From an uncultured Opitutia bacterium (GTDB taxonomy: Bacteria > Verrucomicrobiota > Verrucomicrobiia > Opitutales > Opitutaceae), in the NCBI GenBank assembly GCA_903872505.1, contig CAIQKV010000042.1, positions 1,139 through 65,138 on the forward strand: a DNA stretch of 64,000 bases, in the 5' to 3' direction. The position numbers were made by a program, and so were the translations under genes. A model generated the notes under the pieces. It worked only from the letters and a program-made list of their open reading frames with translations, did not search any database and was not told where the DNA came from. Below, piece by piece: positions 6,480 to 64,000 of the stretch; position 1 is the stretch's first letter; the number at the start of each line of letters is the position of its first letter.

Positions 6480-8951
<2,472 letters not shown>

Positions 8952-8975
8952 GCCTTCCGCCAAGCTTCGCTTTCC

Positions 8976-9007
8976 AGAGCGGGCCGACCGGCCCGCTCTT
9001 TTTTTTT
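8976..9007 (+). terminator. rho-independent terminator of hppA
   Basis: Perfect 10-bp stem AGAGCGGGCC/GGCCCGCTCT with loop GACC, followed by a run of 8 T. Confidence 0.8.
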
Positions 9008-9016
9008 GCGCCCGCG

Positions 9017-9931: not shown

Positions 9932-10083
9932 CGCCACGCTACAAGCAATTCTGGCAGTGCCCATTAAGGCAACGCTCATCAACCCCGCCCATCACCGCCG
10001 TCAATTGACCTCATCGGATTTATCAATTATCCCACCCCCCTTGCTTTAAGCTATGCTCTTGCGCGTTGGAAATTGAAGACTCC

Positions 10084-10701: not shown

Positions 10702-10714
10702 CCCCCACCCCACC

Positions 10715-28838: not shown

Positions 28839-28894
28839 GTAGCTACGAGCGTGAGCGAGTGGCCTTTCCTCCACTCGCTCACGCTCGTGGCTAC
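28839..28894. repeat. REP-like palindromic element, family 1, copy 1
   Basis: Arms GTAGCTACGAGCGTGAGCGAGTGG / CCACTCGCTCACGCTCGTGGCTAC form a 24-bp stem with one G-T pair. Loop is the 8-nt CCTTTCCT. A near-identical copy lies at 51632-51687. Confidence 0.9.
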
Positions 28895-49392: not shown

Positions 49393-50715
49393 TCAGCGCG
49401 GCGGCAGCACGTCGGCAAAGAGCGCCGGATTGCCCAGCACCGCGCGCACCAGGATCGAGGGATATTCGCAGTAGCCGCGCGGCCCGGTCAGGTCGACGCG
49501 CGGCACCTGCAGCGGATGGTAGCGCTCGTGCCAGAAACCGTCGCACTTGAGGCCCATCTGGCAGACCTTGAGCACCGACTCGCGCACGCGCTTCGTCTCG
49601 CCGCGTTTCACGCAGGCCTGCCATTCGAGGAACCACACCCGGCCCATCGCGGCCACATCGTACAGCGGGCCGTTGGGCACCTCGAACCCGACATCCTCAT
49701 GCGCGGAGACAAACTCCCACTCCTGGTACGTGAACGGCTTCGATACCGTCTGCGTCGGCATGTCGCCGTGCCAGAACGAGCGCTCGGCCATCATGCGCGG
49801 CCAGAGCGCGTCGGCCTGCGCGGGCGTCGCGACGTCGTGGGCCACCGCCGCCCAGTTCACGTCCGACAGGCCGTGCAGGTCGACCACGCCGCGCTCGGGA
49901 TGCACGTACTCCGCAAAATGGTCGCCGCGCCAGAACACCTCGCGGAACCGCGCCGCCAGCGTCTCCGCTTCCGCGGTCCAGCGGGCCGCGGCGGCCGCGT
50001 CGCCCCGGGCGGCGCACAGCGCCGCCATGCGCCGGAAGATGTGCACCGTGTAGCATTGGCCGACCCCGTCCCACTGGTGGCGCGGCGGCAGCTCGGTGTA
50101 GAAACCCGCGCCGGCGATCAGGCCGTTGGCACTCTTGCGCGAAAGCACGTGGCGCGCCGCCAGCTCAAGCGAGGGCAGCTTCGCCGCCAGCCACGCGCGG
50201 TCCTGCGTCGCCCCGAACAGCTCGTCGCCGAGCAGCACGTAGCTGACGGGGGCGAGGATGCTCAGCGGGTTGATGCCGGCGATCCAGTGGCTGTAGAGCC
50301 CGGCCCACTGGCGGGCCGGGTAGCCTTGGCGTTGCGGGTCGTACGGGAAAACATCCCGCGGCAGGCTCAGGCCCTTCAGGTAGGTGGTCAGGTTGTCGGG
50401 CGGCGGCTCGGCCGGAAACACCGCGAAGGGAATGTTGCCGTCGGCGCGCTGGCTCGCCTGCACAAAGTCGAAATAACCCCGCACGAGTTCCGCGCGGCCG
50501 AGCAGCAGGTAGGCGCCGGCCATCTGCCACGAGTCGAGCCCGGGCCACGTGTTCTCCGCGCCAAACCAATGGCCGTCGGCCACGATCATGAAGTGCCCCG
50601 GGTAGGCGCGCTCGGTCGCAGCCGGCTCCAGCGACTGCTTGATCGCGGCCGCCAAGCCCTGGCGGATGACCGCGGTTTCGTCGGCCGGTGCCAGCGGGGG
50701 AGTCGGGTCGGGCAT
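49393..50715 (-). CDS. six-hairpin (alpha/alpha)6-barrel glycosidase-like protein
   Basis: 440 aa. The repetitive helical pattern with conserved W/D/G (…GLDSWQMAGAYLLLGR…DGNIPFAVFP…) resembles GH63/GH15-like folds. The family assignment is tentative. Confidence 0.6.
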   Translation of the reverse strand: MPDPTPPLAPADETAVIRQGLAAAIKQSLEPAATERAYPGHFMIVADGHWFGAENTWPGLDSWQMAGAYLLLGRAELVRGYFDFVQASQRADGNIPFAVFPAEPPPDNLTTYLKGLSLPRDVFPYDPQRQGYPARQWAGLYSHWIAGINPLSILAPVSYVLLGDELFGATQDRAWLAAKLPSLELAARHVLSRKSANGLIAGAGFYTELPPRHQWDGVGQCYTVHIFRRMAALCAARGDAAAAARWTAEAETLAARFREVFWRGDHFAEYVHPERGVVDLHGLSDVNWAAVAHDVATPAQADALWPRMMAERSFWHGDMPTQTVSKPFTYQEWEFVSAHEDVGFEVPNGPLYDVAAMGRVWFLEWQACVKRGETKRVRESVLKVCQMGLKCDGFWHERYHPLQVPRVDLTGPRGYCEYPSILVRAVLGNPALFADVLPPR

Positions 50716-50718
50716 AAA

Positions 50719-51480
50719 TCAGGCCACGCTGCCCGTCGCGAAGCTCAGGATCGCGTCGTCGGGCGAGGTCGTGATCGGCACGGGCTTCCCGTGGCCCTTG
50801 CCGCCGTACGGGACGTTCGACAGCGCGTTGTAGCAGCAGATGTAGGCGCGGCGGTGTTTGTCCGAGAGGTTCGCCTCCGACGCGTGGAAGGTGTTGCCGT
50901 GGAAAAAAAGCGCACTGCCCGCCGGCGCCTCGCAATACTTCACGCCGAGCCGCTCGATCGCGGCGGCGACGCGCGCCTGGTCGGCGCCGGACTGTTGGCC
51001 CACCTGCCCGTGGTCGAAACGCCCGAGCAGGTGCGAGCCGGGGATCACCTTCAGGCAGCCGTTCTCCCTCGTCGCCGGGTCCAGCGCGACCATGCAGGAG
51101 ATCAGCCGCGGGTAGAGGCAGCCGTCGCCGTACCAGTAGCCGTAATCCTGGTGCCACTCCCACGCGCCGCCAACGCGCGCCTCCTTCAGCATCACCTTGC
51201 TATGCCAGTGGTACATATCCTCGCGCAGCAGCATCCGCGCGTTGTTCACGATCCGCGGGCTGGTGCTCACGGCGCCGAACACGTCGTTGCCCGCATCCAT
51301 CCACAGCGCCAGCTTGCTCGAGCGGCCGGTCGCGTCGGGCATGTCGCCGGTATGCTGCTTCACCTTGCCGTCCGTCGTGACATGGGCGAGCAGGATCTCG
51401 ATCTCCCGTGGCGTGAACACCTCGGGCACGAGCACATAACCGTCGCGATCGTAGGCCTGGACTTGATCAAGGGAGAGCAT
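50719..51480 (-). CDS. Fe(II)/2-oxoglutarate dioxygenase, PhyH/ectoine-hydroxylase-like
   Basis: 253 aa from the ATG at 51480 (MLSLDQVQAYDRDGYVLVPEVF). WEWHQDYGYW (HxD) and GNTFHASEAN (distal His) are present. Confidence 0.85.
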   Translation of the reverse strand: MLSLDQVQAYDRDGYVLVPEVFTPREIEILLAHVTTDGKVKQHTGDMPDATGRSSKLALWMDAGNDVFGAVSTSPRIVNNARMLLREDMYHWHSKVMLKEARVGGAWEWHQDYGYWYGDGCLYPRLISCMVALDPATRENGCLKVIPGSHLLGRFDHGQVGQQSGADQARVAAAIERLGVKYCEAPAGSALFFHGNTFHASEANLSDKHRRAYICCYNALSNVPYGGKGHGKPVPITTSPDDAILSFATGSVA

Positions 51481-51631: not shown

Positions 51632-51687
51632 GTAGCCACGAGCGTGAGCGAGTGGCCGAACCTCCACTCGCTCACGCTCGTGGCTAC
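51632..51687. repeat. REP-like palindromic element, family 1, copy 2
   Basis: Arms GTAGCCACGAGCGTGAGCGAGTGG / CCACTCGCTCACGCTCGTGGCTAC form a perfect 24-bp stem. Loop is CCGAACCT. It lies 74 nt downstream of the stop of the gene at 51761-52801. Confidence 0.9.
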
Positions 51688-51760: not shown

Positions 51761-52801
51761 CTACTCCCGCGCCCCGCGCGCCGCGCCGATCAGCGCGTCG
51801 ACATTGGCAAACGGCGTCTCCACCGCGAGCGTGCACCCCGAGCTGAGCACAAAGCGCCGGTGGCCGGCCGCGGCCACGGCGGCCAGCGCCGCCCGCGCCG
51901 CCTGCCGCACCCGGGCCGGGTCGCCCCGCGCGAGCACCCCGACCGGGTCGAGGTTGCCCCACAGCGCCATGCCCGGGCCCACGGCGCGGCACGCCTGTCC
52001 CAAGTCCGTGCGGTGGTCGATCTCGAGCCCGTCGGCACCGCTGCGCGCCATGTCGGCGAGGATCGGCCCGGCGTCGCCGCAGATGTGCAGCGAGACGGGC
52101 TTGTTCGTCGCGGCCTGCAGCCCGGCGATCAGCCGCTGCTCGAACGGCAGGGCGACTTCGCGGTAGCGCCGCGGCCCGATCAGCCCGGCCGGCGAGTCGC
52201 CGCCGGTCAGCACGTCGGCGCCGGCCGCCGCCAGCGCGCGGCCGTAGGCGAGCCCGTATTCGGCGCAGCGCTCCATCAGCGCCCGCACGAACGCCGGGTC
52301 GTCGTTGAGCGCCAGCATGATCTGGTTGATGCCCATGAGCGCGGCCGCGAGGGAGAACGGGTACTGGTCAAAGCAGGCCACGACCGCGACGTCGCGGCCG
52401 AGCGCCGCCACCACGCGCTGCAGCGCCTCCAGCATCAGCGGATACCGGCCCTGTTTTTCCGGATCGGGCGGCGGGATGCGCCGGAGATCCGCCGCGGTCT
52501 GCACGAACGGCTCCCCCAGCCCGCCCCACGGCTGGTCCTCGGTCAACGGCCCCACCCGCGCGCCCATCGCCTGCGCGCTCACCCAGGTGTCCGCCGAAAC
52601 GCAGACCGCGTCCGGCCGGAACCGCTCATAGGTCCGGATCACGCAGTCGGCCAGCGTCCGGGCGTCGCCCGTGAAGCGATGCAATGAAACACCCCCCACC
52701 CGCGCGCAAAAATGCACCGTGAGCGGCGCAACCGGCACACGCGGGACCGGCTCGCCCCTCAGGGCCGCCAGAAGAAGTTGCTTGGAGGTCAGGTCCGGCA
52801 T
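51761..52801 (-). CDS. URO-D family protein (MtaA/uroporphyrinogen-decarboxylase-like), paralog 1
   Basis: 346 aa from the ATG at 52801 (MPDLTSKQLLLAALRGEPVPRVPVAP), with …LALNDDPAFVRAL…, SLHICGDAG and …LSSGCTLAVETP. Confidence 0.8.
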   Translation of the reverse strand: MPDLTSKQLLLAALRGEPVPRVPVAPLTVHFCARVGGVSLHRFTGDARTLADCVIRTYERFRPDAVCVSADTWVSAQAMGARVGPLTEDQPWGGLGEPFVQTAADLRRIPPPDPEKQGRYPLMLEALQRVVAALGRDVAVVACFDQYPFSLAAALMGINQIMLALNDDPAFVRALMERCAEYGLAYGRALAAAGADVLTGGDSPAGLIGPRRYREVALPFEQRLIAGLQAATNKPVSLHICGDAGPILADMARSGADGLEIDHRTDLGQACRAVGPGMALWGNLDPVGVLARGDPARVRQAARAALAAVAAAGHRRFVLSSGCTLAVETPFANVDALIGAARGARE

Positions 52802-52961
52802 GGAGCGTGAAGCCAAAGACGACCGCAGCTTGCTTCCGTGGATTTGGACCGCAAGGCGCATCCGGCCGGGGATGGACCGAAATTGCCCGCCCCCACCACC
52901 GTCGCCAGTCGCGAAAATCGGCCCGGAGGCAGGACGCCGTGGCCGCCCGGTCCGGGCTTCC

Positions 52962-54533
52962 TCAGGCGTTCATGTCCGCCCAGCGCCGCGCCATGCGGCC
53001 GAAGATCCACAGGCCCACCGACGCCACGACGCCGATGCACGCGAAGGGCAGCCAGACGTAATGCGGGTGATAGGTGTTCCACAGCAACTGTGTGGCCCCG
53101 ACCGGGTCCAAGCCCGTCAGCTCCTGCAGCTTCACCATCGCGCCGGTGCGCTTCAGCCCCAGCGTGGCCTCGAGCGTCGCCATGTCGCCGTTCCAGCCCC
53201 GTCCCTGGCCGAACGGCGTGTGCTCGGCGATGTAGCGCAGCGCCAGCACCGCCTTCTCGCCGAAGCGCCCATACACGTAGCCGGCGATCGTCGAGCCGAG
53301 GTAAACGCCGACGCCGACCGGGATGTTCACGTAGCCGAGATAGAGGCCCTTCTTCCCCGGCGGCGCGATCAGCGCGAGGTATTCGCTCTTCTTCGGTCCG
53401 GTCGCCATCTCCCCCAGCGAGAAGAACACGATGCCCAGCACCAGCAGCCAGCCGCTCTGCGTCCAGCCCGCCACCAGCACGCCCACGACCGCCAGGATCA
53501 TGCCGATCAGCATCGACTCCAGCGTGCGCATTTTCCGCGTCAGCCAGGCCACGCCCACGACGCCGAGGATGATGAAGAACGAATTGGCGCTCAGCAGGAC
53601 CTGCTGCGGGATCATCGGCCCGCGCGCGGTCTGCTCGATCAGCGCCCGCTGCAGGAGGTCCGGCGCCCAGTGGAGCATCGCCGCCATCGGCCGGCTGTCC
53701 ACCCAGTCGGCGATGAAGTTCGGCTGCAGGTCCCAGAGCTGGTACATCATCAGCCAGAAACAGGACATGATCGCCATCCACGCGAGCAGCCGCCGCTCGA
53801 GGATGTTCGTCACCGTGCGCCACAGGACCTGGCCGATGGACTCGGTCTTGGACGCCCCCGAGGGTACGTCCCGAAACGTCAGCAGCAGCACGAGGTTGAA
53901 CGACGTGAAGAAAGCCGACGCGAGGAACAGGTTGCGCCACGCCTCGCGGGAATTGGCCACGGCGTGCAACGGCCCGGGCAGGACCGCGCTCAACGTCAGC
54001 AGGATCGAGGGCAGGTAATGGCCGATGAACGCGCCGACGTTGACGACCCAGTAAAACACGCCCCAGCCGACCGAGGTCCGCCCCGCCGGCATGCTGTGCG
54101 CCAGCGAACCCTGGATGCACGGCTTGAAGAACGCCGTGCCGGTCGCGAGCGTCATGATGCCGAGGAAGAGCGCCCAGAAATTGCTCAGGAACGCCACGTC
54201 GCGCAGCCCCGCGATCATCAGGTAGCCGGCCATCATCAGCACGATGGAGAACCCGAGCACGCGCTTGTAGCCGTAGCGGTCCGCGAAACCGCCCGTCACG
54301 ATCGGCAGCAGCGACTGGAACGCCGCCCACCACGCGTAGATCACCCCCTTGTCCATCGCCGTGAGGTGGAGCCCGCCGGGGTTGTCCGCCTGCATGATGT
54401 AGATCGGCGCCATCACCCGCAGGTTGTAGAAGGCGAGCCGCTCCCACATCTCGATCGAGTTCAGGATCCAGAAGGTGCGGCCGAATTTCGGCGCGGGGTG
54501 CGGGACGGCGGGGGTGGCCGGAGGGTTTCCCAT
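52962..54533 (-). CDS. MFS transporter, divergent POT/PTR2-like
   Basis: 523 aa from the ATG at 54533 (MGNPPATPAV), with IEMWERLAFYNLRVMAPIYI, GGFADRYGYKR, FFKPCIQGS and ~12-14 TM segments. Confidence 0.75.
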   Translation of the reverse strand: MGNPPATPAVPHPAPKFGRTFWILNSIEMWERLAFYNLRVMAPIYIMQADNPGGLHLTAMDKGVIYAWWAAFQSLLPIVTGGFADRYGYKRVLGFSIVLMMAGYLMIAGLRDVAFLSNFWALFLGIMTLATGTAFFKPCIQGSLAHSMPAGRTSVGWGVFYWVVNVGAFIGHYLPSILLTLSAVLPGPLHAVANSREAWRNLFLASAFFTSFNLVLLLTFRDVPSGASKTESIGQVLWRTVTNILERRLLAWMAIMSCFWLMMYQLWDLQPNFIADWVDSRPMAAMLHWAPDLLQRALIEQTARGPMIPQQVLLSANSFFIILGVVGVAWLTRKMRTLESMLIGMILAVVGVLVAGWTQSGWLLVLGIVFFSLGEMATGPKKSEYLALIAPPGKKGLYLGYVNIPVGVGVYLGSTIAGYVYGRFGEKAVLALRYIAEHTPFGQGRGWNGDMATLEATLGLKRTGAMVKLQELTGLDPVGATQLLWNTYHPHYVWLPFACIGVVASVGLWIFGRMARRWADMNA

Positions 54534-54607
54534 GACGGGTGAACGTGGCGCGGGCGCGGCCCCGAGCGCAAGACCGTTGTCGCCGGCGCACCGCCGGCCC
54601 GGACCCG

Positions 54608-55270
54608 CTATTTCCCGCCGGCCGCCCGGAGCAGCGCGGCGATCTCCCGGTTGCCGGCCTGCTCGGCGTGCGCCAGCGGGGTCACGCCTTGGTGATCGGG
54701 CAGGTTGGGATCGGCCCCGGCGGCCAGCAGCCGGCGCGCGATCTCGGTGTGGACCGGCCCGCGGCCCTGCTTCATCGCCGTCTCCATCAGCGCCGTCCAG
54801 CCGAGGCGGTTGACGTGGTTCACGTCGATTTTCGTCTGCAGCAGGACCTTCACATTCTCGAGGTGGCCCTTCTCGCAGGCCGGGATCAGCGCCGTCCCGC
54901 CGAACCGGTTCGTGCTCTGCAGGTCGGCGCCGGCCGCGAGCGTGAGCTTCAGGATTTCCAGCCGGCCCTCGGCCCCGGCGTAGAGGTACGGGCTGTCCTG
55001 GAGGTTGTCCTTCGCGTTGACGTCCGAACCCGCGGCCACGAGCAGCGCCGCCGCCCCGACCCGGTTGGCATGCGTCGCCGCCATCAGCGCCGTCCAGCCA
55101 TGCTCGTCCCGCGCGCCCACGCTGGCCCCGTGCGCCAGCCATGTCTGCACCAGCGCCACGTCGCCGCCCGCCGCCGCGGCGATCAGCTGCTGGTCGGCCG
55201 TGGGCGGGATGGCCGCGCCGGCCGCCATCACCGGCAGACAGACCAGCGCAAGAGTGAGGAATTTTCTCAT
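54608..55270 (-). CDS. secreted ankyrin-repeat protein
   Basis: 220 aa from the ATG at 55270, with signal peptide MRKFLTLALVCLPVMAAGAA. About 5 ANK repeats (GWTALMAATHANRVGAAALLVAAGSDVN, GGTALIPACEKGHLENVKVLL, GWTALMETA…, GVTPLAHAEQAGNREIAALL). Confidence 0.85.
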   Translation of the reverse strand: MRKFLTLALVCLPVMAAGAAIPPTADQQLIAAAAGGDVALVQTWLAHGASVGARDEHGWTALMAATHANRVGAAALLVAAGSDVNAKDNLQDSPYLYAGAEGRLEILKLTLAAGADLQSTNRFGGTALIPACEKGHLENVKVLLQTKIDVNHVNRLGWTALMETAMKQGRGPVHTEIARRLLAAGADPNLPDHQGVTPLAHAEQAGNREIAALLRAAGGK

Positions 55271-55368
55271 GGGGCGGATCGGTGGGCGCCCAGCATTGGG
55301 AAAAACCGCCCGCTGGCACTGCATAAATTCACCCGCCACCGCGGTGGGATGGAGTCGCTGACCCGGCC

Positions 55369-56346
55369 TCAGACGCTCCGTGCGTCCACCGGCGCGTCCT
55401 GATACCAGTAGGTGACGATACCAAAGCGCACCTGCCCGTTGCCCTCGGCCCGGGCGCGGAGCAGTTGCTCATTATGAATCTCGTCCCGGTAGTTGATCCG
55501 GGCCACCAGGGAGGAGGAGAATCGCACCGGGTCGTTGAGCAGGAACCGGTAGCAGGCCAGCCGGGTCTCGCCGTCCTGATCCCGCAGGAAGGTGGTCCCG
55601 GAATAGTCGTCCGCCCAGAGCTGGTTCCAGCTCCAGCTGAAGCCGAAGAAATCCTCCGTGCCGAGGTAGATGCAGGTCGGATCGGTGGCGCCGTCGACCC
55701 GGAATTCGTCGTTGCCTTCGCAGATGCCCTGGCACCCCGCGAACTGCGGGCAACGGGTCACTGCGGTCAGGTGGCAGCCGAGGAAGTGCCCGCGGCCCCG
55801 GGTATTCAGCAACGGCACTTCGTCGTCCGGCAGGGACACGGTGCGGTCGAGCCACCGCGCATGAAAATACCCGGTGTCCGCTTCCCAGGTGGGCAGCGCC
55901 TCGGCCGTCACATAGCCGTAGCCGGTCACGGTCTGAACCGTGGTGTTCACCAGCGAGAGTTCCACGCCGCGCTGGAATGGCATGGGCAGGTAGCAGAACA
56001 GCGAGTTCGTCGGCCGCTTGGCCATCGCGAGGCTGCTGTACGCCATGGACTCGCCGCCGAACGAGTCGCCGAAGAAATCACCCACCGGCGCATGCACCGA
56101 CGCAAAGGGCTGGCCATCGTAGCGGACCTCGAGAAAGACCCCGCGCTGCAGTTCCGCGCGGTTGCCGCCGGTGATGTTGAGGGTGAGGTGAATCGTGCGC
56201 ACGACTCCCGGCCCGGCAAACCGCCCCAGCTCGATCCGGCCATGCGGCGCCAAGTCCGGCAACTCCGGATACGCGTCCCAGTGCCACAGGCTGTTTTGCA
56301 TCAGCGATCGATAGGGCCGGAGTTTGCAGATTTCCGCGGGATTCAT
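55369..56346 (-). CDS. DUF2961 / GH172-family protein
   Basis: 325 aa from the ATG at 56346, with …FLEVRYDGQ…APVGDFFG…LPMPF…GRGHFLGCHL…CEGNDEFRVDG…GTEDFFGFSW…. Confidence 0.75.
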   Translation of the reverse strand: MNPAEICKLRPYRSLMQNSLWHWDAYPELPDLAPHGRIELGRFAGPGVVRTIHLTLNITGGNRAELQRGVFLEVRYDGQPFASVHAPVGDFFGDSFGGESMAYSSLAMAKRPTNSLFCYLPMPFQRGVELSLVNTTVQTVTGYGYVTAEALPTWEADTGYFHARWLDRTVSLPDDEVPLLNTRGRGHFLGCHLTAVTRCPQFAGCQGICEGNDEFRVDGATDPTCIYLGTEDFFGFSWSWNQLWADDYSGTTFLRDQDGETRLACYRFLLNDPVRFSSSLVARINYRDEIHNEQLLRARAEGNGQVRFGIVTYWYQDAPVDARSV

Positions 56347-56470
56347 CGTGATATTTGCCACCGCGTTGCCGGCAGGATGCGCACCGGCCGCGATGGTGCG
56401 AACCAGGCTAGGCCGCCGTCGTCCGCGGTCGAGATTTTGCTGCAACCGCAGATCGGGTGCCCGGCTCCGC

Positions 56471-57589
56471 TCACTCCGGCCGGCCGCCGTAGTGCCGGCA
56501 CAACTCGGCGACCTGCACGATCCGCTCCCACGGCGTCGTGATCGCGGTCTGGCAGGCGGCCGCAAACACGAAGCTGTCCAGTCCGCGGAGACGCGGGAAA
56601 AAATCCGCGTAAAACCGCCGCACCTCGTCGTCGGTCATGAGCACCTGCTCCCGGGCGGAAAAGCCGCCGTCGTAGATGAATCCCTTGGGCATCGCGAATG
56701 CATCCTCCACGGTCCAGTCGCCGAAGGGCGGGTGCGCCATGCCGTCGAGCCCGTCCAGGCCCGCGGCGACAAACGCGGGCATCAGCCGGTGCAGCTTGCC
56801 GCAGGCATGGACCAGCACGCGTTTGCCGTGGGCGTGAAACAGGTCGGCGGCCTCGCGGATGTACCGCACCCAGTAGCGCTCGATGATTCCACCCGGGGGA
56901 TAAAACGGCGCATCGACGTTGTCCGCCCCGAAGCAGATCACCTCCACGCTGGGATCCGGGGCCATCTCGACCAGCACCGGCCACAGCCGGCTCCAGTACA
57001 GGTCGCAGACCTCCTGCGCCGCCGCGGGATGGTCCATGATGAACAGGCAGGCGCCATCCAGCCCGAAGTCGATGTGCAGGCGCTTCAGCGGCGTATGGGG
57101 CACCGACGCCATCACGACGCCGTCGTCCCCGATCGTCCGGCAGGTCTGGGCGTAGATTTCCCGGTCCCAGCTGAAGGTCAGGCGCTCCAGCATCCAGAGA
57201 TACGCCCGGCGGTCCTGCGGCCAGTCCTTGATGAGATCCTCCACGGCGTAGCTCGCCGTATACTGCGTCTGTTCCTCCCGGAGCCGGCTGAGGACGCCAT
57301 GCGGGGTGCGCAGCGTGTCCGTGGTGCGCGGTCCGAGCGCACCCGTGTCCGTCGTCGTCTGCCACGCCGCTCCCTCCAGGCGGTCCACCACGCCCGACGG
57401 ATTGCGGATGAACAGGTCGCAGCCCAGCCGCCGCATGACGTCGATGCTGTCGCGGGCCTCCGCCACCACCGCGGGCAGGGTGCCAAAATTCCGGTGGTGC
57501 AGGAACCACTGCCCGACGTTGAGGGAGCACGGAATCCACGCCGGCCGCTCGCCGCGCAGCACGCGCTGGAGATTTTCACGTTTCGTCAT
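56471..57589 (-). CDS. URO-D-like family protein, paralog 2 (divergent)
   Basis: 372 aa: MTKRENLQRVLRGERPAWIP…, …VLVHACGKLHRLMPAFVAAGLDGLDG…, …FAAACQTAITTP. Overall layout matches the URO-D-like TIM barrel. Confidence 0.7.
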   Translation of the reverse strand: MTKRENLQRVLRGERPAWIPCSLNVGQWFLHHRNFGTLPAVVAEARDSIDVMRRLGCDLFIRNPSGVVDRLEGAAWQTTTDTGALGPRTTDTLRTPHGVLSRLREEQTQYTASYAVEDLIKDWPQDRRAYLWMLERLTFSWDREIYAQTCRTIGDDGVVMASVPHTPLKRLHIDFGLDGACLFIMDHPAAAQEVCDLYWSRLWPVLVEMAPDPSVEVICFGADNVDAPFYPPGGIIERYWVRYIREAADLFHAHGKRVLVHACGKLHRLMPAFVAAGLDGLDGMAHPPFGDWTVEDAFAMPKGFIYDGGFSAREQVLMTDDEVRRFYADFFPRLRGLDSFVFAAACQTAITTPWERIVQVAELCRHYGGRPE

Positions 57590-60371
57590 GGTGGGAGAAA
57601 GCCCGACGGGCGACCAGCTGCACGCGGCAGCCGAGCCGCGAGGGATCCACGCGACCGGTGAGCGTGACCGGCGATCCGCGCCAGTCGATCTCGAGGAGAT
57701 TCGCGCCGCGCCGGACCGCCGCGGTCACATCCACCTCGTCCGGCGCCCAACGCACGGAGCCGCAAGGCACGCCGTTCACGCGCACCGCCGCGCCGTTGCC
57801 GGAAATCCCCGGGCAGCGCAGCCGGACCCTGCCACCCGGCTTGGCCTTGAGGTTGAATCGCTGCCAGTAGCGCACCGGACCGCAGTAAAACGGCAGTCCC
57901 AGCGCCGTCCGCGTCGTGGCCGCAGTCGCCGTGGCCCGGCGGGCGGGAGTCGTCTCGAGCGCCCCACCCGGCCGCACGATGACATTCCCCTCCAGGCGGC
58001 AGGCGCCGATCATCCCGTCGGTCGCGCGCCGGAGGGTGAACCGGAATTCCAGGCGGTTGATGCCCGGACGGGCGCAGCCCGCCAGCGAATGGCACCGGAC
58101 GAAATCCCCGGCCTGGCGCCACTTGGCCAGCGGCCGGCCGTTGAGCCGCGCCGTCCAGTCGCCGCGCATGTTCCCCTCCTCGCAGACCAGGTTCAGCACC
58201 GGCCTGCCCCGCAGGGCGAAACTCGTGCGGTAAGTCCAGGTGTGCGCGGCGCCCAGTTCGGCCTGCAACGGCACCGGCCCGAAGAGCGTCTGCCCCGTCG
58301 TGGGCGCCAATCCGGGCCGCAGGTCAAACGCCGGGGACAGCTCCACCTTCCGGCCGTTCAGCGTCCACTCGTTGAGAAAGACCGGGTTCGAATTCGGCCG
58401 GACCACGTTCCAGCGGTCGGGCAGCGCGAGCAGAGTCCGGTCCGGTTTGGCCACAACCGCCGCCACGCGCCCGTCCACGATCCGGCTCTCGCCGCCTTGC
58501 AGCCGTCCGCGCGTCTCGCCGAGCGAGAAGCCCGCCGGCTTTTTTCCGATGTTCGCCACCAACCACCGCCCGTCGCTCCGGCGCGCCGCGTGGATGTCCC
58601 CGTTGCTTTGGAGCGGACCGCGCAACGACTGACGGGCCGTCCGCTCGTCCAGCACCGGGCCTTTCCGGCCAAGCGCCGTCAGTCGCGTGCGGGTCTTTCG
58701 GTCGGTGAAGTCAGAGAAAAACACCAGGTGCCGGTAACGGCAGGCCCCAAACGCGAATCGCCCGCCGGCCGCCGTCACGCCGGGCAGTTCGTCGTCGTCG
58801 ATCCAGTGCAGGCGCAATCCGCGCCGGGCCATCTCCGTGGCAAAATTCGCGGCGCGTGTGAGCAGCCGGTCCGCCTTGGGCTTGGCGGCGTTGGGGAGCC
58901 CGCGCAGGAAATCGATCGGGCGGATGGCGAGGACATCCGGTTCCACCCCCGGGCCGAGCCACTCCGCCGCGCGGCGGAATTCATCCGCCAGCGCGGCGAG
59001 GTCCTCCCCCGCGAACGCCGGCGGCGCAAAGCTCGGCGGCGCGTCCAGCTTCCGGTAGCCATCGAGCGAGTAGAGGAAGCCATGCGGCACCAGCACGTTG
59101 ACGCCCGCAACGGCGAGCCAGTCGGCCATGCGCTTCATCGTGCGCAAATCCAGGGTGAAGTCGCAGGCGCCAAACGCCTCGCACAGGACCTGCGGCCGGC
59201 CGGCCTGCGCCGCCGCCGAGACCGCGAGGCCCGCGGTCAGGTTCAGGATCGCGTTCTTCCGGTCACCCGCGGCCGGGATAATCACGTCGCAGCCCGGCAC
59301 CTGGAACTGGCGCAGGTTCGCCAGCACGCTGCCGACGTGGCGGGATTCGTACCACCATTCCTCCTCCGGGCTGATGTGACCCGTGAGCGCGATCCCGTTC
59401 CGGCCGCACCACCGGCTGATCGGCATGGTCCAGTGTTCCAGGAACGCCCGCGCCGTCACCCGCCGGTAGCGGCGCCGCTCCGCGTCCGCGGCCGCGCCTG
59501 TCTCCCCGGCGAGGGCGAATGCCAGCGCCGGCGTGATCTTCCCGATCTTTTCGGCGACGCCCCACCCCCACGGCAGCGGGTTCCGAAACTTCGGTTCGTC
59601 GCAAAATATTCCGGGCACGGTCCGCCCAAAGTGCTTCCCAAACCGGTTCCGGTACGCCTCGTGGGTCAGCTCCAGAAAAAGCCGGGTGGCCGCCGGGTTC
59701 GAGACATCGACGTAATTGCCGAACGGCTCCAGCAAGTCCCCGCCGGTCTGGCGGGCGATCGCCACCAGTTCCCAGCTGCCCCGGGGCAGCACCGTGGCCA
59801 CGACATTCTCCGGCAGGACGCAGATGGCACGCGGACAGTCAAAAACCTCCGCCGGCCCTGAGGGATAATACAGCCGGCTGTCCACCAATTCGGTCTTCCG
59901 CCAGGTGTCCGCGACGGGGCCCACGCAGTCCCGCAGATCGATGGTCTCGCGCCGCCCGGTCCGCCGGCGGGCGTAGCAGGCCAGGACCTCGCCGCCGCCG
60001 AGTTTCCACTCGATCCGCCGGCCACCCGGAAAAACCCCGCGTTCCACCCGCAGCGACTGCTCGACGAACTCGGGCCGGCGCCGCACCACCTCGCCCCCCG
60101 CCGCCCCGCTCGGATAGGGCATTTCGTCGTAGAGCCACGCGCGCAGCCCGAGTTGCCGCGCCTCCGCGATGCAGCACGCCACCGCCGCGAACCACTCCTC
60201 CGAGAGATACGGCGTCGCCAGCCCCTCCCGCGCGTGGATGAAAAACCCGTCGCCGCCCGCCGCCCGGATTTCCCGGATCCGCGCCTGCAGCCGCGCCGGC
60301 TCCAGCCGGTGGTTCAGAAAAAAGAACGGCAGCACCGCGGCGGACGGGGGCTTGTGTCCGGTCCGGCGCAT
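57576..60371 (-). CDS. large glycoside-hydrolase-like protein with two C-terminal galactose-binding-like (GH2-N type) beta-sandwich modules
   Basis: 931 aa. N-terminal barrel-like region (…FFFLNHRLEP…GGDGFFIHAREGLATPYLSEEWF…WLYDEMPYPSG). C-terminal …ARLNGRPLAKW…GINRLEFRF… and …VRVNGVPCGSVRWAPDEVDVTAAVRRGANLLEIDW. The 3' end overlaps the next gene by 14 nt. Confidence 0.7.
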   Translation of the reverse strand: MRRTGHKPPSAAVLPFFFLNHRLEPARLQARIREIRAAGGDGFFIHAREGLATPYLSEEWFAAVACCIAEARQLGLRAWLYDEMPYPSGAAGGEVVRRRPEFVEQSLRVERGVFPGGRRIEWKLGGGEVLACYARRRTGRRETIDLRDCVGPVADTWRKTELVDSRLYYPSGPAEVFDCPRAICVLPENVVATVLPRGSWELVAIARQTGGDLLEPFGNYVDVSNPAATRLFLELTHEAYRNRFGKHFGRTVPGIFCDEPKFRNPLPWGWGVAEKIGKITPALAFALAGETGAAADAERRRYRRVTARAFLEHWTMPISRWCGRNGIALTGHISPEEEWWYESRHVGSVLANLRQFQVPGCDVIIPAAGDRKNAILNLTAGLAVSAAAQAGRPQVLCEAFGACDFTLDLRTMKRMADWLAVAGVNVLVPHGFLYSLDGYRKLDAPPSFAPPAFAGEDLAALADEFRRAAEWLGPGVEPDVLAIRPIDFLRGLPNAAKPKADRLLTRAANFATEMARRGLRLHWIDDDELPGVTAAGGRFAFGACRYRHLVFFSDFTDRKTRTRLTALGRKGPVLDERTARQSLRGPLQSNGDIHAARRSDGRWLVANIGKKPAGFSLGETRGRLQGGESRIVDGRVAAVVAKPDRTLLALPDRWNVVRPNSNPVFLNEWTLNGRKVELSPAFDLRPGLAPTTGQTLFGPVPLQAELGAAHTWTYRTSFALRGRPVLNLVCEEGNMRGDWTARLNGRPLAKWRQAGDFVRCHSLAGCARPGINRLEFRFTLRRATDGMIGACRLEGNVIVRPGGALETTPARRATATAATTRTALGLPFYCGPVRYWQRFNLKAKPGGRVRLRCPGISGNGAAVRVNGVPCGSVRWAPDEVDVTAAVRRGANLLEIDWRGSPVTLTGRVDPSRLGCRVQLVARRAFSHHDET

Positions 60372-60372
60372 G

Positions 60373-60942
60373 TCAGGTCACCAGGTCCTCCGGGGAAACT
60401 GCCGCCCGGCCCGCCGCGGGCGCCACCGGCCGCAACCGCGCCGCCAGGGCCTGCTGCACCACCGCGGTGCGCCGCCGGTAATAAACCGCCATCCCGCCCT
60501 GGTAAATCAACGTGACCACGGCCAGCGAGCCATAGAGGGCGTAAAACATCAGCCGCACCATCGGCAGGATCGCCGCCAGGTCGACGCCGGCCTGCGCCAG
60601 GTCATTGCGCATGTCCGGCGTCAGGTTGCCCATGACGCTTTCGGCGTCGAAGCTCGCAAACCGGCTGGCCGCGTAGACCACGATCACGCCGAGCACCAGC
60701 AGCTGGCTGCGCACGAGGCGGCGCATGCCGTCCGCGTCACCGCGCAGGATCTGCTTGCGGCCGGACAATTCCATCCCGCCGCCCACCGCCACCAGGGCCC
60801 CGACCGCCGCCCCGATGAGATCGCCGAAGGCCAGCGAGACGAGCGCGCCCAGGCCCGCGACAATCGCGACGCCGAGGCCATTCAGCTTGGCCGTGCGCAG
60901 GACGCGCCGCAGCTGTTCCTCGGGGGTGCGCGGTGGTTTCAT
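60373..60942 (-). CDS. membrane protein, unknown function
   Basis: 189 aa from the ATG at 60942 (MKPPRTPEEQL), with 4 predicted TM helices. The stop lies 1 nt before the start of the 931-aa gene. Confidence 0.55.
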   Translation of the reverse strand: MKPPRTPEEQLRRVLRTAKLNGLGVAIVAGLGALVSLAFGDLIGAAVGALVAVGGGMELSGRKQILRGDADGMRRLVRSQLLVLGVIVVYAASRFASFDAESVMGNLTPDMRNDLAQAGVDLAAILPMVRLMFYALYGSLAVVTLIYQGGMAVYYRRRTAVVQQALAARLRPVAPAAGRAAVSPEDLVT

Positions 60943-61004
60943 GGGACGGCGCAGCCTGTGCCAGCCGCTTTCCCCCCGCGAGCCCATTCAGTCGGCCGGC
61001 CCGG

Positions 61005-62075
61005 TCACGGGGCGTAGCGCGCCGGGTGCTCGCGTGCGTGGCGGTCGAGGCCATCCATGATCGCGAGGCAACTGTGCGGCCAGCGCTCGGGCGGCATGTC
61101 CTCGGTGATGCCGACGAGCAAGCCGTCCACCGGGCCGGCCTGTTCCAGCAGGTCGAACGCGACCTGTTCGACGGCGGCGTCCGGCTGGAGGTGCACCGAG
61201 GAGGGAAAGTTGATCCACAGGACCTTGCCGGGCCAGGCGGCGCGCGCCTCCGCCAGGGTCTGGTCGGTGTCGGGCGCGGGCGTGAAGGCCTCGATATAGT
61301 CCAGCGCCGTGCCGGCGATCGCCGGCGCGAGGATCCGCGTGTTGGCGTCGAAGTGGCAGCCGATCAGCTTGCCGTGGCGGTGCATGACCTCGGCCGCCTC
61401 GTTGTAGTGCGGCACGAAATATTTCTCGAAGTTCTCCTTCCCAATTATCTCGGGGGTCACGTTGCCGCCGTAGTTGGCGTGCGAGGCCGGCGACTGCGCC
61501 ACGAGCGGGTAGATCTTGCGGCGGTTCGCCACGAGGATCTCGTACAGCCGCAGCACCTCGTCGCGCCGTTCCATCCACTCCTCGCAGTACGTCTGCATGC
61601 CCATCACGCCGCCGGAAATGAGCTCCTGCATCGGCTCGAGCCCGAAGTTCGCGCGGCAGATCGCGTCCCCGCCAAACGCCGCCTCGGCGCGGGCATACGC
61701 GGCGTAGGCCGGCGCGTAGACCTCGTCGCGCAGCAGGAAGCGGATCGCGGCGTAGTCCTCCGGCCGCTTGAGCAGGAGCTCGTGCCGCCAGGACGTGAAG
61801 CCGCCGTCCTCCGAGAGGGTCGACAACGCGCCGTGCGGGGTCTCGTAGCGGGTGCGGGTGAACTTGCGCTCCCCTTCCCAGTAGACCTCCTGCACCGTCT
61901 TCACGTTGGGCCGGTGGGTCGTGAAGACCGGGAGGCGGTGCACGATGCAGCAGCCGCGGTTGCGCAGCTGGCGCTCCCCCGCGCACTGGGGGATCATGCA
62001 CTCGTAGATGGTGAACGGCACGCGGTCGGTGTGTCCGCCGCGCAGCGCCTGCTCGACTCTCTCCCGTGGGGTCAT
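61005..62075 (-). CDS. URO-D-like family protein, paralog 3 (divergent)
   Basis: 356 aa: MTPRERVEQALRGGHTDRVPFT…, …GKLIGCHFDANTRILAPAIAGTALDYIEAF…, …LLVGITEDMPPE. Confidence 0.65.
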   Translation of the reverse strand: MTPRERVEQALRGGHTDRVPFTIYECMIPQCAGERQLRNRGCCIVHRLPVFTTHRPNVKTVQEVYWEGERKFTRTRYETPHGALSTLSEDGGFTSWRHELLLKRPEDYAAIRFLLRDEVYAPAYAAYARAEAAFGGDAICRANFGLEPMQELISGGVMGMQTYCEEWMERRDEVLRLYEILVANRRKIYPLVAQSPASHANYGGNVTPEIIGKENFEKYFVPHYNEAAEVMHRHGKLIGCHFDANTRILAPAIAGTALDYIEAFTPAPDTDQTLAEARAAWPGKVLWINFPSSVHLQPDAAVEQVAFDLLEQAGPVDGLLVGITEDMPPERWPHSCLAIMDGLDRHAREHPARYAP

Positions 62076-62093
62076 GGCTGGGTTTTCTGGGGT

Positions 62094-63107
62094 TCAGGGT
62101 TGATGCGTCCGCGCGTAATCGCACAGGGCGCGCAGATTGGCCTCGGGCGTGTCCGGCGGGACCTCGCAGCCTGCGCCGACGACGAAGCGGGGGCCGGCCT
62201 CGCGGTGGCAGGCCGCCACCGCGGCGGTCACCGCGGCCGGGGTGCCGTTGCGCAGCACGGCCACGGGATTGAGGTTGCCCAGCAGGACCTGGTCCGGGCC
62301 CATCCGGGCGCGGGCCTCGGCGAGGGGCACCATGGAATCGAGGTCCACGATGGCGCAGCCCAGGCGGCCCAGGCCGGCGAGATGGGCCCGCGTGTTGCCG
62401 CAGATGTGCAGGCGGACCGGCACGCCGAGGGCCCGGATCCCCGCCACGAGGCGCTGTTCGTAGGGCCAGACGAACTCGCGGTAGATCTCCGGCCCGAGGA
62501 GCGAGGCCGCCGCGTCGCCCATGCCGATCAGGTCCGCGCCCGCCGCCACCTGCTCGCGGGCAAAGCGCAGTTCCATCTCCACCACAAAGGCGAAGAGGTC
62601 GTGCACGAAGGCCGGGTCGTCGGAGAAATCCAGCATCACCGTGTTGATGCCGCGCAGGTCCGCCGCCTCGGCGACCGGCCCCTCGATCCAGCCCTCGACG
62701 AGCCGGGCCGGGCCCACCCGCTCCCGCAGGAGCGCCACGGCCCGGATGCGGTTGGTCATGCGGCCGCCCCCCAGCGGGTCGGGCGGCCGCAGGCCGGCGA
62801 GCTGGATTTTGTCGGCCAGCCGCGCCTCCTCCTCGATGATCGCCACCGGTTGCTCGTCGAAATACCGGACGCGCGCGCCGCAGTCCGCCGCCTCGACCGC
62901 GGGATCGGAGATGACGCTGACGTGGTCGAAGCCGAACTCTTCCGCGGTCCGCAGCTGCGCGGCGGCCAGCACGCGGTGGTCCGTGCAATAGTCGAGGTAG
63001 CGCACCCCCGCCCGCCGGGCGGCGAACATCATGGTGATGGGCATGAGCGGCAGCCGGTCCACGGGCCGGCCCGCGAGATGGGCGAGGATGCGTTCACGGC
63101 CGTTCAT
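62094..63107 (-). CDS. URO-D family protein (MtaA-like), paralog 4
   Basis: 337 aa: MNGRERILAHLAGRPVDRLPLMP…, DFSDDPAFVHDL, RLHICGNTR and VVGAGCEVPPDTP. Confidence 0.8.
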   Translation of the reverse strand: MNGRERILAHLAGRPVDRLPLMPITMMFAARRAGVRYLDYCTDHRVLAAAQLRTAEEFGFDHVSVISDPAVEAADCGARVRYFDEQPVAIIEEEARLADKIQLAGLRPPDPLGGGRMTNRIRAVALLRERVGPARLVEGWIEGPVAEAADLRGINTVMLDFSDDPAFVHDLFAFVVEMELRFAREQVAAGADLIGMGDAAASLLGPEIYREFVWPYEQRLVAGIRALGVPVRLHICGNTRAHLAGLGRLGCAIVDLDSMVPLAEARARMGPDQVLLGNLNPVAVLRNGTPAAVTAAVAACHREAGPRFVVGAGCEVPPDTPEANLRALCDYARTHQP

Positions 63108-63123
63108 GGTGCGCCGGGTCCGG

Positions 63124-64000
63124 TCAGTAGTTTCCCTCGCGCCGCCAGACGTCGAGCATGACCTCGTAGCTGGCCAGCGGCATGCCGGTGTAGATGCAAT
63201 TGCTCGTGGAGAAGATGTAGCCGCCGCCCGGCATGCCGGCCTGCAGCGCGTGGCGCGCGGCCGCCGCGACCTGCGCCGGCGTGCCCGTGTCCATCATGCC
63301 GCAGTGCACGTTGCCGATCAGGCAGACCTCGCGGCCGTGGCGCCGCTTGACCTCCGCCAGGTCCACCCCGCCCTGCGGATCGAGCGAGTGCAGGGCATGC
63401 GGCCCGGTCTGCACCAGCTGGTCGAGGATCGGCATGATGTTCCCGTCGGTGTGCTTGATCACGTAGTAGCCGAGGTCGCGGTAGCCGCGGGTAAGCTCGG
63501 CGAGGTAGGGCGTGACGAACTCGCCGAATTTCGCCGGGCTCAGGAATGGCCCGGTGTTGAAGCAGTAGTCCGCGCACAGCGCATAGCCGTCGAGCCCGCC
63601 CGGCCGGCGCCAGCGCGCCGCGCGCGCCAGCGACTCCCGCACCCAGCCGGCGGTCTGCGCCTTGAGCTTGTCCGGCTCCTCCACCATCGCGCAGGAGAAG
63701 GCCTCCATCTCGGTCCCGCTCGGGATCGCAAAGGTCGCGTCGCCGTGCGCCATGAGGAAATACCGGTCGCCCGTGCGCTCGCGGATCAGGTCCACCATCC
63801 GCTGCAGCTCCTCGTCGGTGGCCGGGTTCGCGTGGACGAAGATGGCGCTGTGCTCGAAGCGTTCGGCGGTGGCGATATAGAGGTCGGCCATGTCGCGCCG
63901 ATGCAGGTCCCGCTCCTTCTCCTCCATCTGCAGCCACTGGTCGTAGTTGCGGTGCGTGGGGTGCACGCGCCCGAAGGCCTCCATCGTGAGATAGAACACC
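63124..64000 (-). CDS. URO-D-like family protein, paralog 5 (5' end beyond the window)
   Basis: More than 291 aa, with …FLSPAKFGEFVTPYL…YYVIKHTDGNIMPILDQLVQTGPHALHSLDP…GGGYIFSTSNCIYTGMP…. The ORF is open at the window edge. Confidence 0.65.
   Translation of the reverse strand, partial: VFYLTMEAFGRVHPTHRNYDQWLQMEEKERDLHRRDMADLYIATAERFEHSAIFVHANPATDEELQRMVDLIRERTGDRYFLMAHGDATFAIPSGTEMEAFSCAMVEEPDKLKAQTAGWVRESLARAARWRRPGGLDGYALCADYCFNTGPFLSPAKFGEFVTPYLAELTRGYRDLGYYVIKHTDGNIMPILDQLVQTGPHALHSLDPQGGVDLAEVKRRHGREVCLIGNVHCGMMDTGTPAQVAAAARHALQAGMPGGGYIFSTSNCIYTGMPLASYEVMLDVWRREGNY

Follow-up and report, generated by a model that had tools for sequence, protein, structure and literature searches.

A conserved five-paralog URO-D module in a carbohydrate-related gene island of an uncultured Opitutaceae bacterium and its possible role in corrinoid-linked methyl transfer

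The gene string and its URO-D-superfamily paralogs

The 64,000-nucleotide (nt) stretch of DNA analyzed here (~69% G+C; contig CAIQKV010000042.1 of assembly GCA_903872505.1, positions 1,139 to 65,138), referred to below as the window, derives from an uncultured Opitutia bacterium of the family Opitutaceae. Toward its end, on the minus strand, five divergent paralogs of the uroporphyrinogen decarboxylase (URO-D) superfamily, designated U1 to U5, are interleaved with genes for a 931-amino-acid (aa) glycoside hydrolase (GH)-like protein, a 189-aa membrane protein, a GH172 protein, an ankyrin-repeat protein and a major facilitator superfamily (MFS) transporter (Table 1). The string was delimited from the open reading frame (ORF) listing, third-position G+C content and public gene calls on identical contigs. 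An earlier note on this DNA, made from the sequence alone, had called ten genes here, and the ORF listing and public gene calls recover all ten at its coordinates on the minus strand; the identities it gave to the interleaved genes are likewise confirmed. Calculated from the coordinates, and in agreement with that note, the gaps along the string from U5 to U1 are 16, 18, 62, 1, -14, 124, 98, 74 and 160 nt, including a 14-nt overlap between U2 and the GH106-like gene and a single nucleotide between the latter and the end of the gene for the protein with four transmembrane segments (4-TM protein). The superfamily and the kind of system are known; new are the conserved module of five paralogs that glycan islands of Planctomycetes-Verrucomicrobia-Chlamydiae (PVC) bacteria contain and the subfamily formed by U2 and U3.

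All five genes belong to the URO-D superfamily, as had been proposed. U1 (236.9 bits), U4 (221.4 bits) and U5 (73.0 bits) exceed the gathering score of the Pfam URO-D family (PF01208; 23.9 bits); U2 (18.0 bits) and U3 (20.9 bits) stay below it and are placed by profile comparison and an AlphaFold model of U3. With hhalign, the U2 and U3 family profiles match along their entire length (probability 100%, E 4e-49). Pairwise identities bear out the low mutual similarity of the paralogs: 39% between U1 and U4 (E 1e-56), 25% between U2 and U3 (E 1e-11) and 29% across 178 aa between U4 and U5, with only marginal similarity in the remaining pairs. By sequence, the paralogs sort into three old groups, {U1,U4}, {U5} and {U2,U3}. 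Orthologs of each of the five occur at about 73–90% identity in other Opitutaceae loci, and beyond the family U3 has relatives 50–70% identical across phyla and U5 has relatives at 70% identity or more; the paralog set is therefore old, as the earlier note had argued against a recent duplication.

U1 and U4 form an MtaA-like pair. The best PDB match of both is MtaA of Methanosarcina mazei (4ay7; 1.3e-28 for U1 and 5e-23 for U4), with which their LHICG(N/D) and GC zinc-ligand motifs are in register, and both score higher with the mtaA_cmuA model of NCBIfam (TIGR01463, cutoff 235.4 bits) than with its HemE equivalog model (TIGR01464, cutoff 302.95 bits). Scores with the HemE model fall below the cutoff for U1 (90.9 bits), U4 (78.2 bits) and U5 (22.1 bits), and U2 and U3 receive none; in an alignment with bacterial HemE structures, U1 lacks both the N-terminal RQAGR motif and the catalytic Tyr. 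A true HemE identity was rejected on the basis of the equivalog scores and the absent HemE motifs. Judged by these comparisons, U1 and U4 are MtaA-like relatives, neither HemE nor members of the curated MtaA family; members of the U1 cluster carry the label 'MtaA/CmuA family methyltransferase' in IMG.

U2 and U3 constitute a subfamily that Pfam and PDB sequence searches miss, yet its sequence is strongly conserved across phyla. When the AlphaFold2 (AF2) model of U3 (pLDDT 93, pTM 0.88) was compared with the PDB by Foldseek, the top 26 matches were all UROD or MtaA (E 1e-10 to 1e-7, TM score ~0.6), the best being human UROD (E 1e-10, TM score 0.62) and MtaA 4ay7 (TM score 0.59); xylose-isomerase-like barrels appeared as weak matches (TM score 0.3–0.4). 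His241, Asp243 and Glu325 of U3 are invariant in 31 sequences from ~9 phyla, as are many Trp, Tyr, Asn, Asp, Glu and Arg residues. In the alignment these three residues fall on the positions of the MtaA His/Cys/Cys ligands, and the model places them at the C-terminal ends of barrel strands. A beta-meander insert of ~50 residues (51–99) is predicted between barrel strands 2 and 3. U2 is built in the same way, down to the TPxGxL motif of the insert, and has a putative His-x-Cys…Cys metal site instead; in the U2-family alignment the two non-His metal positions alternate between Cys and Asp. A metagenome scan with a U2-family alignment returned only eight loci. The His-x-Cys…Cys motif is present in U1, U4 and U2 and absent from U3 and U5. 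Within the superfamily, S-methyltransferases have His-Cys-Cys sites, and O-methyltransferases have Asp/Glu or non-coordinating residues in place of one or both Cys (PMC10418091); U3 shows this exchange of Cys for Asp/Glu in the alignment. In CdmB, a methyltransferase 1 (MT1) enzyme, extensions are inserted between the first three barrel strands, and human UroD is the closest structural homologue (PMC13222342). The predicted insert position and best structural match of U3 would give it the architecture of such an MT1-type enzyme.

U5 is cut by the end of the window. Contigs L001–L004, which match the window at 100% identity for as much as 11.9 kb, put its true start at position 64074, an ATG that lies 74 nt outside the window. 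The resulting 316-aa protein begins with MTPRDRCIAALERRPLTGRVP, in keeping with MTPR(D/E)R… at the N-terminus of the family; in public gene calls U5 has 301 aa, and the family alignment and the DNA put the start at an ATG 15 codons upstream. His193 and Asp195 of the KHTDG motif are invariant in the family alignment. The U5 family is very large and conserved, and its members are labeled 'uroporphyrinogen decarboxylase' by annotation pipelines.

Table 1 Features of the gene string, in order from U5 on the minus strand
Feature	Position (nt)	Strand	Description
U5	63124 to beyond 64000	-	First gene of string; short URO-D-family protein, His-x-Asp (KHTDG), 316 aa full length
U4	62094-63107	-	337 aa; MtaA-like URO-D protein, His-x-Cys…Cys (LHICGN…GAGC)
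U3	61005-62075	-	356 aa; divergent URO-D-superfamily subfamily, predicted beta-insert, His241/Asp243/Glu325
4-TM membrane protein	60373-60942	-	189 aa; from hydropathy analysis
GH106-like protein	57576-60371	-	931 aa; alpha-L-rhamnosidase-type by homologs and AF2 model
U2	56471-57589	-	372 aa; same divergent subfamily as U3, but His-x-Cys…Cys (VHACG…AAAC)
GH172 (DUF2961) protein	55369-56346	-	325 aa; Pfam match
Ankyrin-repeat protein	54608-55270	-	220 aa; Ank_2 match
MFS transporter	52962-54533	-	523 aa; MFS_1 match
U1	51761-52801	-	346 aa; MtaA-like URO-D protein, His-x-Cys…Cys (LHICGD…SSGC)
Palindrome	51632-51687		Perfect 24-nt inverted repeat, 8-nt loop
PhyH-family Fe(II)/2-oxoglutarate dioxygenase	50719-51480	-	Start approximate, alternative ATG 51537; Pfam PhyH 136.6 bits
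(alpha/alpha)6-barrel GH-like protein	49393-50715	-	Abuts PhyH gene; weak rhamnosidase/MGH1-like similarity

Conservation of the module and its genomic neighborhoods

The Opitutaceae comparison comprised 20 related loci fetched with U3, the nearest relatives being Opitutaceae metagenome-assembled genomes (MAGs). Their usual arrangement is a contiguous U5-(U4)-U3-U1 block, in which U1 directly follows U3 at 17 of the 20 loci and U4 is found at 12; the order seen in the window, with the membrane protein and GH106-like genes after U3, is shared only by loci L015 and L016. At locus L104 (4250-12209), U5, U4, U3, U1, U2 and GH172 are contiguous, with a HemN-like gene divergent upstream. On the strength of these contiguous blocks, including that of L104, the five paralogs are one module and their interleaving in the window is a local rearrangement; the L104 order is probably nearer to the ancestral state than that of the window. 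The linkage to GH genes seen in the earlier note recurs, with at least one GH- or polysaccharide lyase (PL)-like gene at 19/20 loci, but the interleaving is not the conserved state and the GH genes are variable neighbors. Nearly all neighbors are nonetheless related to carbohydrates: the most frequent are a PL22-like propeller (14/20) and GFO/IDH/MocA-family genes (11/20), and GxGYxYP, GH172, (alpha/alpha)6 GH, GH5 and MFS genes also occur. GH172 follows U2, directly or within ~2 kb, at several related loci. A PhyH gene follows U1 at 9/20 loci as well as at L099, and orthologs of the (alpha/alpha)6 GH gene follow PhyH at related loci.

Outside Opitutaceae, U3 orthologs with 50–70% identity are present in Planctomycetota, Omnitrophota, Kiritimatiellota, Lentisphaerota, Latescibacterota, Armatimonadota, Gemmatimonadota and Clostridia. 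We compared 62 such loci, which brings the U3 loci to 82 in total. Neighbors of U3 at the 62 loci include GFO/IDH/MocA-family genes (18/62), other URO-D paralogs (at least 12 loci), GH genes (GH78 and GH106, GH42-like, and GH20 or GH63-like; at least nine loci), MT1-type genes of the MttB family, often separated by gaps of 6–17 nt (6/62), glucose-6-phosphate dehydrogenase (five loci) and a cytoplasmic sulfatase (four loci). GH78 and GH106 both follow the U3 ortholog of an Omnitrophota locus (L065).

Two of these loci tie U3 orthologs to a corrinoid system. In a Lentisphaerae locus (L051; U3 ortholog 63% identical), three AraC genes are followed by genes for a corrinoid protein (7655-8281), RACo (8313-9998), the U3 ortholog (9995-11065) and a further URO-D protein (11071-12153), the last four separated by 31, -4 and 5 nt. 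In a Clostridia MAG (L057, 311-9664; U3 ortholog 62% identical), one strand carries RACo, a sugar-type SBP_bac_1 solute-binding protein, a corrinoid protein, the U3 ortholog and AraC/PocR, and the other carries URO-D, GFO, a CobW/COG0523-type metallochaperone GTPase and a URO-D-thioredoxin fusion, which makes three URO-D paralogs in all. No pterin-type MT2 was seen at the corrinoid-linked U3 loci. The earlier note saw no MT1-type partner or cobalamin-binding domain in the window; a conventional corrinoid system nevertheless stays conceivable, given that these orthologs share tight operons with a corrinoid protein and RACo. On a Chthoniobacteraceae contig, a U5 ortholog lies among AraC, GH94, PL22-like and heparinase-like genes, with a RACo fragment 8 kb away at the contig end.

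Several more distant loci show other associations. On a distant metagenome contig (L102, 8396-11131), a gene 45% identical to U2 follows a PhyH gene after only 9 nt, and AraC, LacI and aldose 1-epimerase genes surround the pair. This suggests a functional tie between PhyH-family dioxygenases and the URO-D subfamily of U2; in the window's genome, too, PhyH genes lie on both sides of the module. MAGs of Gemmatimonadota and Latescibacterota (L081, L084 and L087) combine an MttB-family gene, the U3 ortholog, GFO and a PFL-like glycyl-radical enzyme, to which L084 adds a cytoplasmic sulfatase, with no corrinoid protein within 10 kb; in this recurrent cluster the U3 family may take part in a pathway for quaternary amines or sulfated compounds. 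At L093 (7843-11991; unclassified bacterium), a GHMP-family (sugar-type) kinase, a weak URO-D-like gene and a U5 ortholog (73%) lie beside a convergent third URO-D gene, a further case of several URO-D paralogs clustered outside Opitutaceae.

The non-URO-D genes of the string are largely carbohydrate-related. The 931-aa protein has no Pfam match of its own, PF17132 included, and its homologs at 25–35% identity carry PF17132 (GH106). Its AF2 model (pLDDT 89) finds the GH106 alpha-L-rhamnosidases 5mqm (BT_0986; 2.8e-33) and 6q2f (4e-30) as best Foldseek matches, the next family, GH42, reaching only 1e-11, so that the earlier view of a GH-like protein is upheld by the predicted structure. As a conserved partner of the URO-D proteins the GH106-like protein was rejected, since its 38–47% identical homologs sit with GH38, GH20, GH2, GH123 and GFO genes and without URO-D. 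The GH172 protein matches DUF2961 (PF11175) with 160.8 bits against a gathering score of 27, in agreement with the precomputed GH172_dom and GH172_2nd assignments. The transporter scores 85 bits with MFS_1 and 25.6 bits with PTR2, the latter under its gathering score. For the (alpha/alpha)6 GH-like protein, the scores with Bac_rhamnosid6H (24.3 bits) and MGH1-like_GH (20.5 bits) are at or below the gathering scores. The 4-TM protein has no Pfam or NCBIfam match; its gene accompanies either the GH106-like gene or a radical-SAM gene at related loci. The ankyrin protein matches Ank_2 with 107.9 bits and begins with a hydrophobic segment that hydropathy suggests to be signal-like. Ankyrin repeats are uncommon in bacterial catabolic islands; in Opitutaceae, this gene recurs near the module at L015–L017, L020, L024, L099, L100 and L104. 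Signal peptides and transmembrane segments are absent from the URO-D paralogs and from the GH106-like, GH172, GH5 and PhyH proteins, and the chemistry of these enzymes is therefore cytoplasmic.

The earlier note had seen no heme genes, which is true inside the window and not of the DNA just past its end. A HemN-family radical-SAM gene (window-equivalent ~64253-65572; L001 3831-5150, minus strand) lies ~250 nt beyond the end, divergent from U5 with a shared upstream region of 178 nt, and scores 414 bits with NF006385 ('coproporphyrinogen III oxidase family') against a cutoff of 355. It is found next to U5 at six of the 20 related Opitutaceae loci and at L104; a class C methyltransferase, a HemW-like chaperone and others are possible roles. 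Upstream of it follow GH5, a 403-aa membrane protein, a GFO/IDH/MocA-aldo-keto-reductase fusion, SpoU, a second PhyH and DUF885.

At the other end of the string, the palindrome GTAGCCACGAGCGTGAGCGAGTGG is real, with perfect 24-nt arms and an 8-nt loop. A second copy lies in the window at 28839-28894, both copies being intergenic between minus-strand genes, and one arm occurs between U3 and U1 in another Opitutaceae genome (L030, 11081-11104). The palindrome is therefore a REP-like repeated element, and as a specific operon terminator it was rejected for that reason. It had been taken to end the string; it exists where described, but the conserved PhyH and (alpha/alpha)6 GH-like neighbors continue past it. 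A tRNA gene at 405-487 is the sole Rfam match at gathering threshold within the window.

Proposed methyl transfer on glycan-derived substrates and competing explanations

Tentatively, and short of an even chance, we read the string as a cytoplasmic glycan island in which an ancient, conserved five-paralog module of putatively metal-dependent (zinc-type), methyltransferase-like enzymes may carry out corrinoid-linked methyl transfer on glycan-derived substrates. The methyl-transfer part of this reading is drawn from the classes into which the metal sites fall, the resemblance of U1 and U4 to MtaA, the MT1-like architecture predicted for U3, the operons of L051 and L057 and the adjacency of MttB-family genes; the glycan-derived substrates are suggested by the recurrent linkage to cytoplasmic GHs, sugar-type regulators and transporters. 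Rhamnosidase-type enzymes stand out among the linked GHs (the GH106-like protein here, GH78 and GH106 in L065), and methylated sugars are the obvious candidate substrates. The comparisons show membership in the superfamily, the classes of metal motif, a conserved module linked to GH genes, and corrinoid operons around orthologs of other taxa; we infer methyl transfer itself, its dependence on a corrinoid in this organism and a substrate among methylated sugars, possibly those of rhamnose-containing glycans. This reading is in line with the carbohydrate-linked function inferred in the earlier note, to which it adds a mechanism, namely a conventional corrinoid relay with its carrier encoded at another site.

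In the mechanism we propose, oligosaccharides or decorated sugars would be imported, possibly by the MFS transporter, and trimmed by the cytoplasmic GH106-like, GH172 and related enzymes, whereupon the paralogs would shuttle methyl groups between the trimmed substrates and a cobalamin carrier. U3 (His-Asp-Glu) and U5 (His-x-Asp) could act as MT1-like O-demethylases that transfer the methyl group of a methyl ether to Co(I). U1, U4 and U2 (His-Cys-Cys) would be of the MtaA type and handle a thiol acceptor or a sulfur-linked substrate. Genes for the corrinoid protein, its reductive activase and a pterin-type methyltransferase, if there is one, would lie at other sites of the genome, as in the split MtgBCD system.

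A number of results weigh against this reading. Searches by tblastn with two corrinoid proteins, two RACo and MttB, together with a six-frame DxHxxG…S.L…GG scan, returned only spurious matches to antisense ORFs. Neither the window nor the 10 kb past its end nor the 20 Opitutaceae loci yielded a corrinoid protein, RACo, MttB or a pterin-type methyltransferase. This agrees with the earlier observation that the window holds no corrinoid protein or MT1-type partner, and a partner just past the window end was rejected, as the contig extension shows none within 10 kb. Only two of the 62 non-Opitutaceae loci (L051 and L057) have a corrinoid protein and RACo, and in some genomes U3 is solitary, with nothing related nearby. 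The mtaA_cmuA scores of U1 (167.0 bits), U4 (158.8 bits) and U5 (36.5 bits) lie below the cutoff, and a PDB sequence-profile search with the U3 family found nothing, which leaves U2 and U3 without a sequence-detectable PDB relative. Our confidence remains limited mainly because 80 of the 82 U3 loci have no corrinoid gene nearby, because no cobalamin riboswitch was detected in the window, the extension, two related loci or a permissive scan upstream of U5, because the GFO/IDH/MocA and PhyH neighbors suit other sugar chemistry equally well, and because the literature yielded no report of a UroD-superfamily methyltransferase or corrinoid system acting on a sugar.

The main rival reading is that the paralogs, at least U2/U3 and U5, are metal-dependent sugar enzymes other than methyltransferases (decarboxylases, isomerases/epimerases or hydrolases/lyases) that work without a corrinoid alongside GFO/IDH/MocA and PhyH, which we regard as somewhat unlikely. 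GFO/IDH/MocA genes are the commonest neighbors when Opitutaceae and other loci are taken together, the close PhyH/U2-like pair of L102 and the rarity of corrinoid genes at U3 loci fit such an enzyme, and so does a strongly conserved U3 that is sometimes solitary. The invariant Trp, Tyr, Asn, Asp, Glu and Arg residues of U3 are of kinds frequent in sugar-binding sites, and HemE, the founder of the superfamily, is a decarboxylase. However, only two linkages are mechanistically specific, one with a corrinoid protein plus RACo and one with MttB-family genes, the putative metal-ligand positions match those of MtaA, and U1 and U4, which are clearly MtaA-like, are co-operonic with U3 and U5. The xylose-isomerase-like barrels among the weak Foldseek matches also speak for a sugar enzyme, but their TM scores are well below those with UROD and MtaA, and HemE-type decarboxylase residues are not evident. 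The earlier note had named both O-methyl and carboxyl groups as decorations that might be stripped from sugars; O-methyl stripping by the paralogs is plausible, and specific support for decarboxylation is absent.

Alternatively, the module could be a corrinoid methyltransferase system for methylated small molecules other than sugars (methyl-sulfur or methyl-selenium compounds, quaternary amines or methoxylated aromatics), the carbohydrate genes being merely typical neighbors in PVC genomes; this we consider a good deal less probable. The His-Cys-Cys sites of U1, U4 and U2 are typical of S- and Se-methyltransferases (PMC10418091), MttB-family genes of the quaternary-amine type abut U3 orthologs at six loci, some of them with a glycyl-radical enzyme and a cytoplasmic sulfatase, and the GH neighbors differ between genomes. 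Yet the overlap of U2 with the GH106-like gene and the GH172 gene after U2 in several genomes point to a closer tie with carbohydrates, as do the GH78 and GH106 genes after a U3 ortholog of another phylum, the sugar-type SBP_bac_1, GFO and AraC genes within the Clostridia corrinoid operon, and the GH/PL-like genes at nearly all Opitutaceae loci. A tetrapyrrole pathway (synthesis or salvage of heme, chlorophyll or corrinoids) built from URO-D-type decarboxylases and the HemN-family enzyme is suggested by the divergent gene beside U5 at 6/20 loci and L104 and by the annotation of U5 relatives, but is highly improbable in view of HemE equivalog scores of 91, 78 and 22 against a cutoff of 303, the MtaA zinc motif of U1 in a protein without RQAGR and the catalytic Tyr, the lack of other tetrapyrrole genes nearby and the absence of the radical-SAM gene from 14/20 related loci.

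Within corrinoid-linked methyl transfer, the more specific proposal is that the U2/U3 subfamily, and perhaps U5, are a hitherto overlooked, widespread family of O2-independent carbohydrate O-demethylases that pass the methyl group of methylated rhamnose, fucose or uronates to a corrinoid. We regard this as unlikely, if worth stating; the family itself occurs in Verrucomicrobiota, Planctomycetota, Lentisphaerota, Kiritimatiellota, Omnitrophota, Armatimonadota, Latescibacterota and Clostridia.

Relation to known systems and significance

Among characterized proteins, the MT2 enzymes MtaA and MtbA (4ay7) share the URO-D barrel and the in-register His-x-Cys…Cys motif with U1 and U4. The identity of these two is only ~25–30%, however, with sub-cutoff NCBIfam scores; there is no adjacent corrinoid protein, and the host is a glycan-degrading bacterium rather than a methanogen. 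UroD-superfamily MT1 enzymes (OdmB, VdmB, MtvB, MtoB and CdmB) resemble the module in fold, CdmB in addition through its closeness to human UroD and its strand extensions (PMC13222342). The apparent carboxylates of U3 and U5 in place of Cys ligands recall the O-methyltransferases among them (PMC10418091), and the U3 orthologs of L051 and L057 reside in operons with a corrinoid protein and RACo. Unlike the module, which is associated with GHs and transporters, these enzymes act on methoxylated aromatics or halomethanes in strict anaerobes; in Opitutaceae loci a linked corrinoid protein, MT2 and activase are lacking, and U2 and U3 are beyond detection by Pfam and PDB sequence searches.

The type 1 mlp clusters described by Kountz and Balskus (PMC10418091) offer a parallel in that each contains several divergent MtaA-like paralogs with His-Cys-Cys sites and that their function was deduced from metal site and neighborhood. 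Mlp genes, however, always occur with a corrinoid protein and a Ram/RACE activase, among sulfur-metabolism neighbors; in the module both are absent, the neighbors are carbohydrate-related and carboxylate-type paralogs are found too. Precedent for methyltransferase paralogs unlinked from a single shared corrinoid protein comes from the split MtgBCD/MtgE system of aerobic marine bacteria, whose substrate-binding subunits differ in belonging to the MttB family (PF06253) rather than to URO-D and in acting on N-osmolytes (PMC12478193). Removal of a sugar methyl ether before catabolism, by an enzyme encoded beside GHs, is known from the P450 6-O-methyl-galactose demethylase of marine Bacteroidota (PMC6292453). 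That enzyme belongs to an unrelated family and is oxidative and O2-dependent, releasing formaldehyde (PMC6292453), whereas our proposed route would transfer the methyl group without oxidation. The module is best seen as a well-defined, testable lead rather than a demonstrated new mechanism.

Sugar methyl ethers such as 2-O-methyl-fucose, 2-O-methyl-xylose, 4-O-methyl-glucuronate, 6-O-methyl-galactose and methyl-rhamnoses block glycoside hydrolases. The P450 route is the only described enzymatic removal of such ethers ahead of glycan catabolism (PMC6292453), and we found no paper on how anaerobic or microaerobic glycan degraders handle them. O2-independent sugar O-demethylases, should the paralogs prove to be such, would fill this gap beside the O2-dependent route. 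A link between B12-dependent methyl transfer and polysaccharide catabolism is possible. Were the module to be a set of corrinoid-linked sugar demethylases, the UroD-superfamily methyltransferases would gain a new class of substrates, polysaccharide turnover in PVC bacteria would become linked to vitamin B12, and thousands of proteins now annotated as 'hypothetical' or 'uroporphyrinogen decarboxylase family', part of which current Pfam models miss, would receive a function. Whatever its chemistry, U3 is a worthwhile target, being 50–70% identical across phyla, with an invariant His-Asp-Glu set and no characterized relative.

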